Source: a virus
Taxonomy: Duplodnaviria > Heunggongvirae > Uroviricota > Caudoviricetes
Virus record (IMG/VR): IMGVR_UViG_2693429599_000008
DNA: 9,032 bases
Strand: one strand, 5' to 3'
Below the pieces are notes generated by a model. The model saw only the letters and a list, made by a program, of their open reading frames with translations. It was not told the origin of the DNA and did not search any database. The translations under genes were made by a program, and so were the position numbers. Shown in pieces: positions 1,912 through 2,629 of the stretch (the first letter of the stretch is position 1; every line of letters starts with the position of its first letter).

Positions 1912-2436
1912 TCAGCTGATACTGATCCCTGCCGTGGATTTTTTCATGACCACAACCAGTAAATCACTGATGTACGTTGTCGGCGTCCAGTTGTTCGCAC
2001 CGGCCGACGACACATTAAACGTCAGGGTGACATGACCCCGCCCTGCCGGCATATCTATCACCGATGAGAACACCCGGCTGACATCCGTTGCCGGTTCATG
2101 GAAAATCTCAACCCCGTTCTTCAGCACCTGCAGCTTACAGGTGGAATACCAGTACGACTGCTGATTCGGGCTGTTGAAATTCTGGTGTTTCGTCCCGCGA
2201 AACAGCACCGGGGGAATGATAATCTGCCGGTCGAAGCCCTGGTCATCGTAAACTGTGACGGTTACCGTCCCGCTGGCATAACTGTTATTCCGGGGAAAGG
2301 CTTTCCCCACCGTCTTCACCAGGTCGCCTTCAATCTGGTTTGCAGACAGTTTCCCTCTGATGACACAGTTCTCGTTAATGGTGACATTATTGAGCGTGCC
2401 GGTATTCGCGGTAATTGCTCCGCTGATATCTGGCAT
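1912..2436 (-). pseudogene. C-terminal fragment (about 175 codons) of a J-like tail tip / host-specificity protein, fused to truncated Rz
   Basis: Frame is open 1912-2550, but the upstream part overlaps Rz in another frame. The beta-rich, N/T/S/G-rich C-terminal sequence is followed by a terminator and then a lom-like start, the lambda J-lom synteny. Assignment to J is by synteny and composition, not by verified alignment. Confidence 0.4.
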
Positions 2437-2629
2437 CAAGTGCAGCAACATCACGCTGGCGTATCTGCATATCAGTAATTGTCGCGTTCGCCAGCTCCAG
2501 CTCACTGGCTTTTTTATCGCGCTGCTCTTTGTAGATGATGGCGTGATCACGGTAATGATTCAGCCCCAGACTAAGCGCACCACAGGCCACCAGCAGGACA
2601 ATGATAACCACGCACAGAACACGGTTCAT
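2387..2629 (-). pseudogene. Rz i-spanin, truncated after about 70-75 homologous residues; Rz1 absent
   Basis: From the ATG at 2627-2629: '[68 protein letters not shown]' parallels lambda Rz (N-terminal TM segment, 'NHYRD', '[17 protein letters not shown]'), then diverges and stops after 12 unrelated residues. No proline-rich lipoprotein frame (Rz1) is embedded. Confidence 0.75.

Follow-up and report, generated by a model that had tools for sequence, protein, structure and literature searches.

Probable scar of an approximately 21-kb internal deletion joining Rz to J in an effector-carrying, lambda-like prophage remnant of Escherichia coli

The window analyzed here, the whole 9,032-nt stretch of a Caudoviricetes record (IMG/VR IMGVR_UViG_2693429599_000008), carries at 2427–2430 a joint that very probably arose when a lambda-like E. 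coli prophage with type III effector cargo, integrated at the serU–yodB site, lost about 21 kb from its interior. Both parental sequences were found, the exact break points were located, the lost gene content was read from intact relatives and the joint recurs in independent assemblies. The host element is, as read from its sequence, a multiply deleted remnant with four deletion joints in the window (Table 1). All genes around the Rz–J joint lie on the minus strand.

Table 1. Features of the window, in order of position
Feature	Coordinates	Strand	Description
nleB2	1..981	minus	Type III effector arginine glycosyltransferase, prophage cargo; PF24688, E 3e-181; RefSeq annotation
Tail-fibre C-terminal fragments (two)	1158-1791	minus	
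Second deletion joint	1701-1702		lom codon 48 fused to collagen-like repeat region of tail-fibre gene; 2-bp microhomology
lom 5' fragment	1701..1843	minus	About 47 codons, ATG 1843, ends at second deletion joint
Intrinsic-terminator-like hairpin and T-run	1874..1893	minus	8-bp stem, directly after J stop
J C-terminal fragment	1912..2430	minus	Codons 987-1158 and stop of 1158-codon tip attachment/host specificity gene
Rz' out-of-frame tail	2387..2426	minus	12 foreign codons and stop, read from J DNA
Rz–J deletion joint	2427..2430	none	TATC plus / GATA minus, 4-bp microhomology; BLAST end points, three-way alignment
Rz' native part	2427..2629	minus	Codons 1-68 of 155-codon i-spanin gene; N-terminal transmembrane (TM) segment and start of periplasmic coiled coil
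orf37	2631..2744	minus	Small hydrophobic, 37 codons, intact; abuts Rz start; identical to WP_000675931.1 in relatives
Endolysin	2965..3498	minus	Lysozyme family, 177 aa, intact; PF00959; 100% identical to B19374 protein
Holin	4186..4392	minus	Phage-21-type class II holin, 68 aa, intact; PF04971; 100% identical to B19374 protein
Third deletion joint	5815		About 4.5 kb lost
hok-family ORF	6015-6227	minus	Type I toxin–antitoxin hok/sok locus, 6015-6340(−)
sok RNA	6165-6340	minus	RF01794, 120.5 bits
queH	6408-7094	minus	Epoxyqueuosine reductase QueH gene, 228 aa
Fourth deletion joint	8277..8281		About 4.45 kb lost; 5-bp microhomology GGTTA

The position of the joint is defined from both sides. DNA homology of the J type covers window 1701–2430, and homology of the Rz type runs from 2427 upward (BLAST). 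In megablast searches of 5,426 complete E. coli genomes and 50,697 phage records, J-side matches stop at 2430 and Rz-side matches start at 2427 in thousands of records; the former are annotated as host specificity protein J (up to 100% identity) and the latter as lysis protein, lysozyme and the like (up to 99.9% identity). An earlier note on this DNA had proposed aligning the region with intact related prophages and looking for microhomology. The prophages of strains RM14723 and B19374, which carry both flanks, place the break point, and the joint holds 4 bp of microhomology, TATC. The note had also let Rz homology end after ‘ALDARY’, as the alignment with lambda Rz confirms, but had set the joint near 2436–2440, about 8 bp from its actual place.

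Three-way alignment of the window with both parental sites, which lie at 4685–4688 and 25674–25677 of the RM14723 locus (L001), finds TATC at each of them and once in the window, and the switch from J parent to Rz parent is clean within these 4 bp. The same alignment revealed no filler DNA, insertion sequence (IS) remnant or extended or imperfect homology near the joint. Microhomology of at least 4 bp at random end points has a probability of 0.016. The Rz and J frames are offset by one base (2686 − 2550 = 136 = 3 × 45 + 1), so that Rz is fused to J out of frame, as originally proposed.

On the Rz side, the reading frame runs on the minus strand from an ATG at 2629 to a stop at 2387 and encodes 80 aa, 68 of them native and 12 foreign. 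It aligns with residues 1–70 of lambda Rz (58% identity, E 5e-28), the match being lost after ...ALDARY, and covers only profile positions 2–42 of 126 in Pfam PF03245 (Phage_lysis). The Rz proteins of B19374 and RM14723 are identical to it through Y68. These intact relatives, 99.9% identical up to the joint, encode an Rz of 155 aa (annotated as ‘lysis protein’, 155 codons, in RM14723), and lambda Rz has 153. The N-terminal TM anchor is kept: hydrophobic residues 4–23 (VLCVVIIVLLVACGALSLGL) are identical to those of the intact relatives and align with the lambda Rz N-terminus. The full periplasmic coiled coil with its Rz1-contacting C-terminal end (about 150 aa in total) is absent, with 68 native residues against 155 or 153.

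The o-spanin lipoprotein Rz1 is encoded within Rz in the +1 frame, and RefSeq places its start in B19374 at Rz nucleotide 221. The window keeps Rz nucleotides 1–203 only, which leaves the Rz1 start 18 nt past the last retained base; Rz1 is therefore wholly lost, start codon included. The truncation of Rz and the loss of Rz1, both of which had been claimed, are thus borne out. The remaining product, Rz', consists of the anchor and the first third of the coiled coil without an Rz1 partner, and so lacks the defining features of a spanin.

On the J side, ORF 1912–2550(−) matches Pfam PF12421 (Ig_GpJ_C) with E 1.6e-39 over profile positions 4–135 of 135. The match occupies the C-terminal 129 residues of this ORF and represents the receptor-binding domain of the tip attachment protein J. 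Alignment with lambda J residues 961–1131 (48% identity, E 3e-46) begins exactly at ORF residue 41, which corresponds to window 2430, and the DNA of the fragment is 100% identical to the J gene of B19374. The frame over 1912–2436 is thus clearly J-like, in line with the original description of a J-like C-terminus.

Codons 987–1158 of 1158 are left; the N-terminal ~980 residues of J, which build the tail tip, are gone. An ATG at 2436, contributed by Rz DNA, opens a 174-aa ORF, J', made up of MP followed by J residues 987–1158. Direct reading of the bases upstream of this ATG (GCTGCACTTG) reveals no Shine–Dalgarno sequence. J' has no export signal and keeps the receptor-binding domain only. Next on the minus strand come the hairpin (1893–1874) and, from the ATG at 1843, a lom-like start with 65% identity to lambda Lom residues 20–50, in the order that had been described. 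Both Rz' and J' are best treated as pseudogene fragments.

Intact relatives define what is missing. In the RM14723 prophage (NZ_CP027103.1), window 1701–2430 corresponds to L001 3959–4688 and window 2427–5815 to L001 25674–29062, at 99.9% identity. The stretch absent from the window measures 20,985 bp relative to RM14723 and about 21,030 bp relative to B19374 (NZ_CP142915.1). In B19374, which offers the nearest intact match, the J side (1701–2430) is 100% identical and the Rz side (2427–5815, 3.4 kb) 99.88% identical. In at least four complete genomes, both flanks are collinear and in the same orientation in a single prophage, 21–24 kb apart (megablast).

From its J end, the missing stretch in L001 holds the first 986 of 1158 J codons, sodC and tail assembly proteins I, K, L and M, followed by the tape measure protein, T, G, the major tail protein, U, Z and FII. 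FI, the major capsid protein, the decoration protein, the S49 protease and the portal protein come next, and the Rz end carries W, the large and small terminase subunits, a YlcI/YnfO gene, a PerC-family gene and the 3' part of Rz. An exact lambda cosN 12-mer (GGGCGGCGACCT) lies at L001 24104, inside the missing stretch, and a search of the window for this 12-mer found no copy. The terminase, portal, capsid and tail genes and cosN all fall within the missing stretch, so that particle and packaging functions are lost with it.

The earlier note had envisaged a single deletion of about 20 kb that removed Rz1, terminase, portal, head and most tail genes. The extent and content agree with the ~21 kb found in intact prophages; the word ‘single’ says more than a joint can prove, which records only the outermost end points. 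The list of lost genes was right but short, as cos, sodC, the PerC-family gene and the YlcI/YnfO gene belong to it as well.

The B19374 prophage lies between tRNA-Ser (serU)/mtfA and yodB-zinT-msrQP-hiuH-hprR. The order nleF, yodB, zinT, msrQ, msrP, hiuH, hprR is common to B19374 and to two joint-bearing contigs, L003 and L015; it follows the remnant on L003 and on the 219-kb contig CYFI01000005.1 (GCA_001283785.1), the end of which is 100% identical to the window. Over the yodB-side flank, L003 is 99.6% identical to B19374. Judged on the yodB side, the remnant occupies the same chromosomal site as the intact B19374 prophage. The window ends in the exonuclease region, as does its source contig, so flank collinearity covers the yodB side rather than the whole element. 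On the yodB side, an ARAGORN scan of the remnant yielded no tRNA; in B19374, serU lies on the integrase side, beyond the reach of the source contig.

The resemblance to these two prophages extends to gene content. B19374 has the same integration side next to yodB, and both B19374 and RM14723 share nleB2 with the remnant as cargo, together with nleC and nleH pseudogenes; nleF is found additionally in B19374 and in L003 and L015. J, lom, holin, endolysin and the first 68 Rz codons are the same (99.1–100% DNA identity). Unlike the remnant, the two prophages still have the 21-kb block of genes for packaging, head and tail, complete lom and tail-fibre genes, Q, and the modules for immunity and replication, and their early regions differ mosaically from that of the window.

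The joint is rare and recurrent. Exact-sequence look-ups recovered the 80-aa junction ORF on 12 contigs and the 174-aa one on 13, from at least five NCBI E. coli draft assemblies (GCA_001285345.1, GCA_001277415.1, GCA_001283785.1, GCA_017117565.1 and GCA_030205695.1), four ENA metagenome assemblies and one Logan run. Joint-bearing contigs match the window across the joint at 99.25–100% identity, with identical end points in all of them. None of the 5,426 complete E. coli genomes carries the joint (megablast with the whole window, with 1–2600 and with a 200-bp probe across the joint), and an exact 40-mer across it has no match in GTDB species-representative genomes, an absence that shows the rarity of the joint rather than an artifact. 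A literature search found no description of the joint in the serU nleB2/nleF remnant. In metagenome scaffold L005, 28 of the 32 differences to the window fall within 127 bp of the endolysin gene (window 3214–3340), which suggests a small recombination patch acquired after the deletions.

The deletion very probably joined Rz nucleotide 203 (codon 68) to J codon 987, with the crossover placed within the 4-bp microhomology, a pattern typical of what illegitimate, homology-independent recombination would leave. Replication slippage or microhomology-mediated end joining may have been the mechanism, although 4 bp is a short stretch to infer it from; the lack of longer homology around the break points suggests that the event was RecA-independent. 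Lost in the deletion were the C-terminal part of Rz, Rz1 in its entirety, cos, the two terminase genes, the genes for portal, head and tail, sodC and J codons 1–986. The 80-aa Rz' and the 174-aa J' would then be non-functional by-products.

Other origins of the joint were weighed against this one. Repeats of lambdoid prophages are a frequent cause of broken or wrongly joined short-read contigs, and no complete genome among those searched has the joint; a chimeric contig mis-joined across repeated prophage DNA might therefore be suspected. The same joint, however, occurs in five separately assembled isolates, four metagenomes (different assemblers) and a Logan unitig assembly, and the 4-bp overlap is far below any assembler k-mer. 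Since independent isolate, metagenome and Logan assemblies share the joint, an artifact is regarded as excluded at the level of these assemblies, and the chimera has a negligible probability. A naturally short but complete Rz next to a stand-alone J-like receptor-binding gene is what the public annotation implies, in which both are ordinary CDSs, ‘endopeptidase’ and ‘tail component of prophage’. This has next to no chance of being right: relatives with 99.9% identity have a 155-aa Rz, so Rz does not naturally end here, the Pfam match is partial, the last 12 codons are out-of-frame J DNA, and the J' ATG lacks a Shine–Dalgarno sequence. The chimera, the naturally short Rz and the stand-alone J-like gene are each rejected on this evidence.

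Two further scenarios accept the joint as real. Illegitimate recombination between two resident lambdoid prophages, with the chromosome between them lost or rearranged, would find ample substrate, as E. coli genomes of this type carry near-identical lambdoid prophages (median 4, up to 37 matching places per genome). Both the early region, for which another relative is a better match than B19374, and the position of the integrase-side flank past the contig end speak for this origin. It is nevertheless very unlikely, because at least four complete genomes have the two flanks within one prophage, ~21 kb apart and correctly ordered and oriented, and in B19374 this prophage occupies the same site next to yodB, with 99.9–100% identity on both sides of the joint, including 99.88% over the adjoining 3.4 kb on the Rz side. 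Several successive nested deletions, of which the present joint would be only the last, appear unlikely too, if less so. The three other independent deletion joints in the same 9-kb window do attest repeated DNA loss; no intermediate was found, however, with 0/5,426 complete genomes carrying a partial version of the joint, and the end points are identical in all joint-bearing contigs, which makes one event the most economical account. The internal deletion of ~21 kb within one prophage thus stays the favored reading.

The remaining joints involve smaller losses. The second joint stands for a loss of 1,585 bp when compared with RM14723 and B19374 and is common to every joint-bearing contig that extends so far. 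The third deletion takes the N-terminal half of a 616-aa SASA/NanS-p esterase, DUF3927, a TerB pseudogene, antiterminator Q, RusA and DUF968; on the usual lambdoid layout, the late promoter that directly follows Q would have gone with them. It leaves ORF 4840–5847(−), 335 aa, which opens with the initial 11 codons of a 92-codon hypothetical gene and continues in frame with esterase residues ~295–616. The esterase part of this chimeric ORF is the C-terminal DUF6645 half, and its start codon is borrowed. The fourth deletion removes the DUF1627 N-terminus, replication genes, YdaT, immunity-region regulators, DUF1391 and ydfC, leaving ORF 7689–8288(−) as a DUF1627 gene minus its first ~59 codons.

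These losses bear on the claim that the Rz–J deletion had produced a non-inducible remnant. The outcome is probably right; the cause is not, as this deletion alone abolishes virion formation, packaging and spanin function, not induction. What would make the element non-inducible is two other deletions, which took out Q, the late-promoter region, the repressor and the replication genes. It should thus be capable neither of being packaged (no cos) nor of being induced (Q, repressor region and replication genes gone).

The early region (5816–9032) is 99.4% identical to a relative, F2_407_2_2 (L002), against 76–93% to B19374. As it is closer to L002 than to B19374, the true ancestor was a mosaic, of which no intact copy was found. 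queH is present in intact F2_407_2_2 and absent from RM14723 and B19374, which marks it as a mosaic cargo gene of the early region. The hok/sok locus is retained between two deletion joints; an Rfam scan of the window detected sok only, far from the Rz–J joint.

The holin, endolysin and cargo genes are kept, as had been claimed: an intact relative has holin, endolysin and orf37 proteins of 100% identity, and NleB2 is still encoded. With Q and the late promoter region gone, the holin and endolysin genes, though intact, are probably silent. It is highly improbable that holin, endolysin and orf37 form a domesticated module for controlled content release or envelope remodelling without a spanin, with J' possibly acting as a free receptor-binding protein. 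ORF intactness is what such a domestication would draw on, and near-zero divergence from an intact prophage explains intactness equally well.

The surroundings of these genes have some peculiarities. The holin–endolysin spacer (3499–4185) spans ~690 bp, is AT-rich (39% GC) and holds an opposite-strand ORF, 3616–3930(+), which is hypothetical protein WP_000138558.1 in relatives; the spacer is conserved in intact phages and looks like a moron inserted in the lysis cassette. A strong terminator-like hairpin with a 15-bp stem at 2843–2875(−), between endolysin and orf37, is likewise present in intact relatives, an unusual terminator location for a lysis operon. Downstream of nleB2, the 45-bp stretch 1078–1122 recurs at 91% identity at L001 56–100, near an nleH/tail-fibre-assembly remnant, and represents a short repeat of the effector-cargo region.

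The DLP12, Rac and Qin prophages of E. coli K-12 are classic cryptic lambdoid deletion remnants that keep parts of the lysis cassette. They contain Rz/Rz1 remnants (rzpD/rzoD, rzpR/rzoR and rzpQ/rzoQ), dicB/ydfD-type early genes and hok-type toxin loci. Like them, the present remnant keeps holin and endolysin and has hok/sok in the window, and dicB and DUF1482/ydfD-type ORFs were called on L004, L015 and L017 in window-matching DNA. In DLP12 the spanin pair is complete; in the present remnant Rz breaks off at codon 68 and Rz1 is missing. The K-12 remnants are not known to carry type III effectors and occupy other chromosomal sites.

Defective lambdoid prophages that combine morphogenetic deletions with kept effector cargo are well documented in EHEC and EPEC. 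The Sp prophages of E. coli O157:H7 Sakai resemble the remnant in being lambda-like and in having type III effector genes placed after those for the tail fibre. The defects described in them extend from frameshifts to deletions and IS insertions, with loss of morphogenetic genes, and several defective ones are still excised, packaged and transferred with the help of other prophages (Asadulghani et al. 2009, PMC2669165). Unlike the Sakai prophages, the remnant has lost cos, Q, the repressor region and the replication genes, so the route of helper-mediated excision and packaging is closed to it.

The Rz–J joint is one more instance of ordinary prophage decay, not new in kind, and adds no new biology on spanins, tail proteins or deletion mechanisms. 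Its value is practical. The two halves of the scar, which stand in public records as CDSs named ‘endopeptidase’ and ‘tail component of prophage’, are due a pseudogene flag. As a lineage marker the joint is clean: it identifies a small group of E. coli with nleB2 and nleF and can be detected with a 40-mer or with either junction ORF. In the joint-bearing strains the effector genes should by now be a fixed part of the chromosome, since an element without cos, Q, the repressor region and the replication genes is not expected to be mobilized by helper prophages as in Sakai (PMC2669165).
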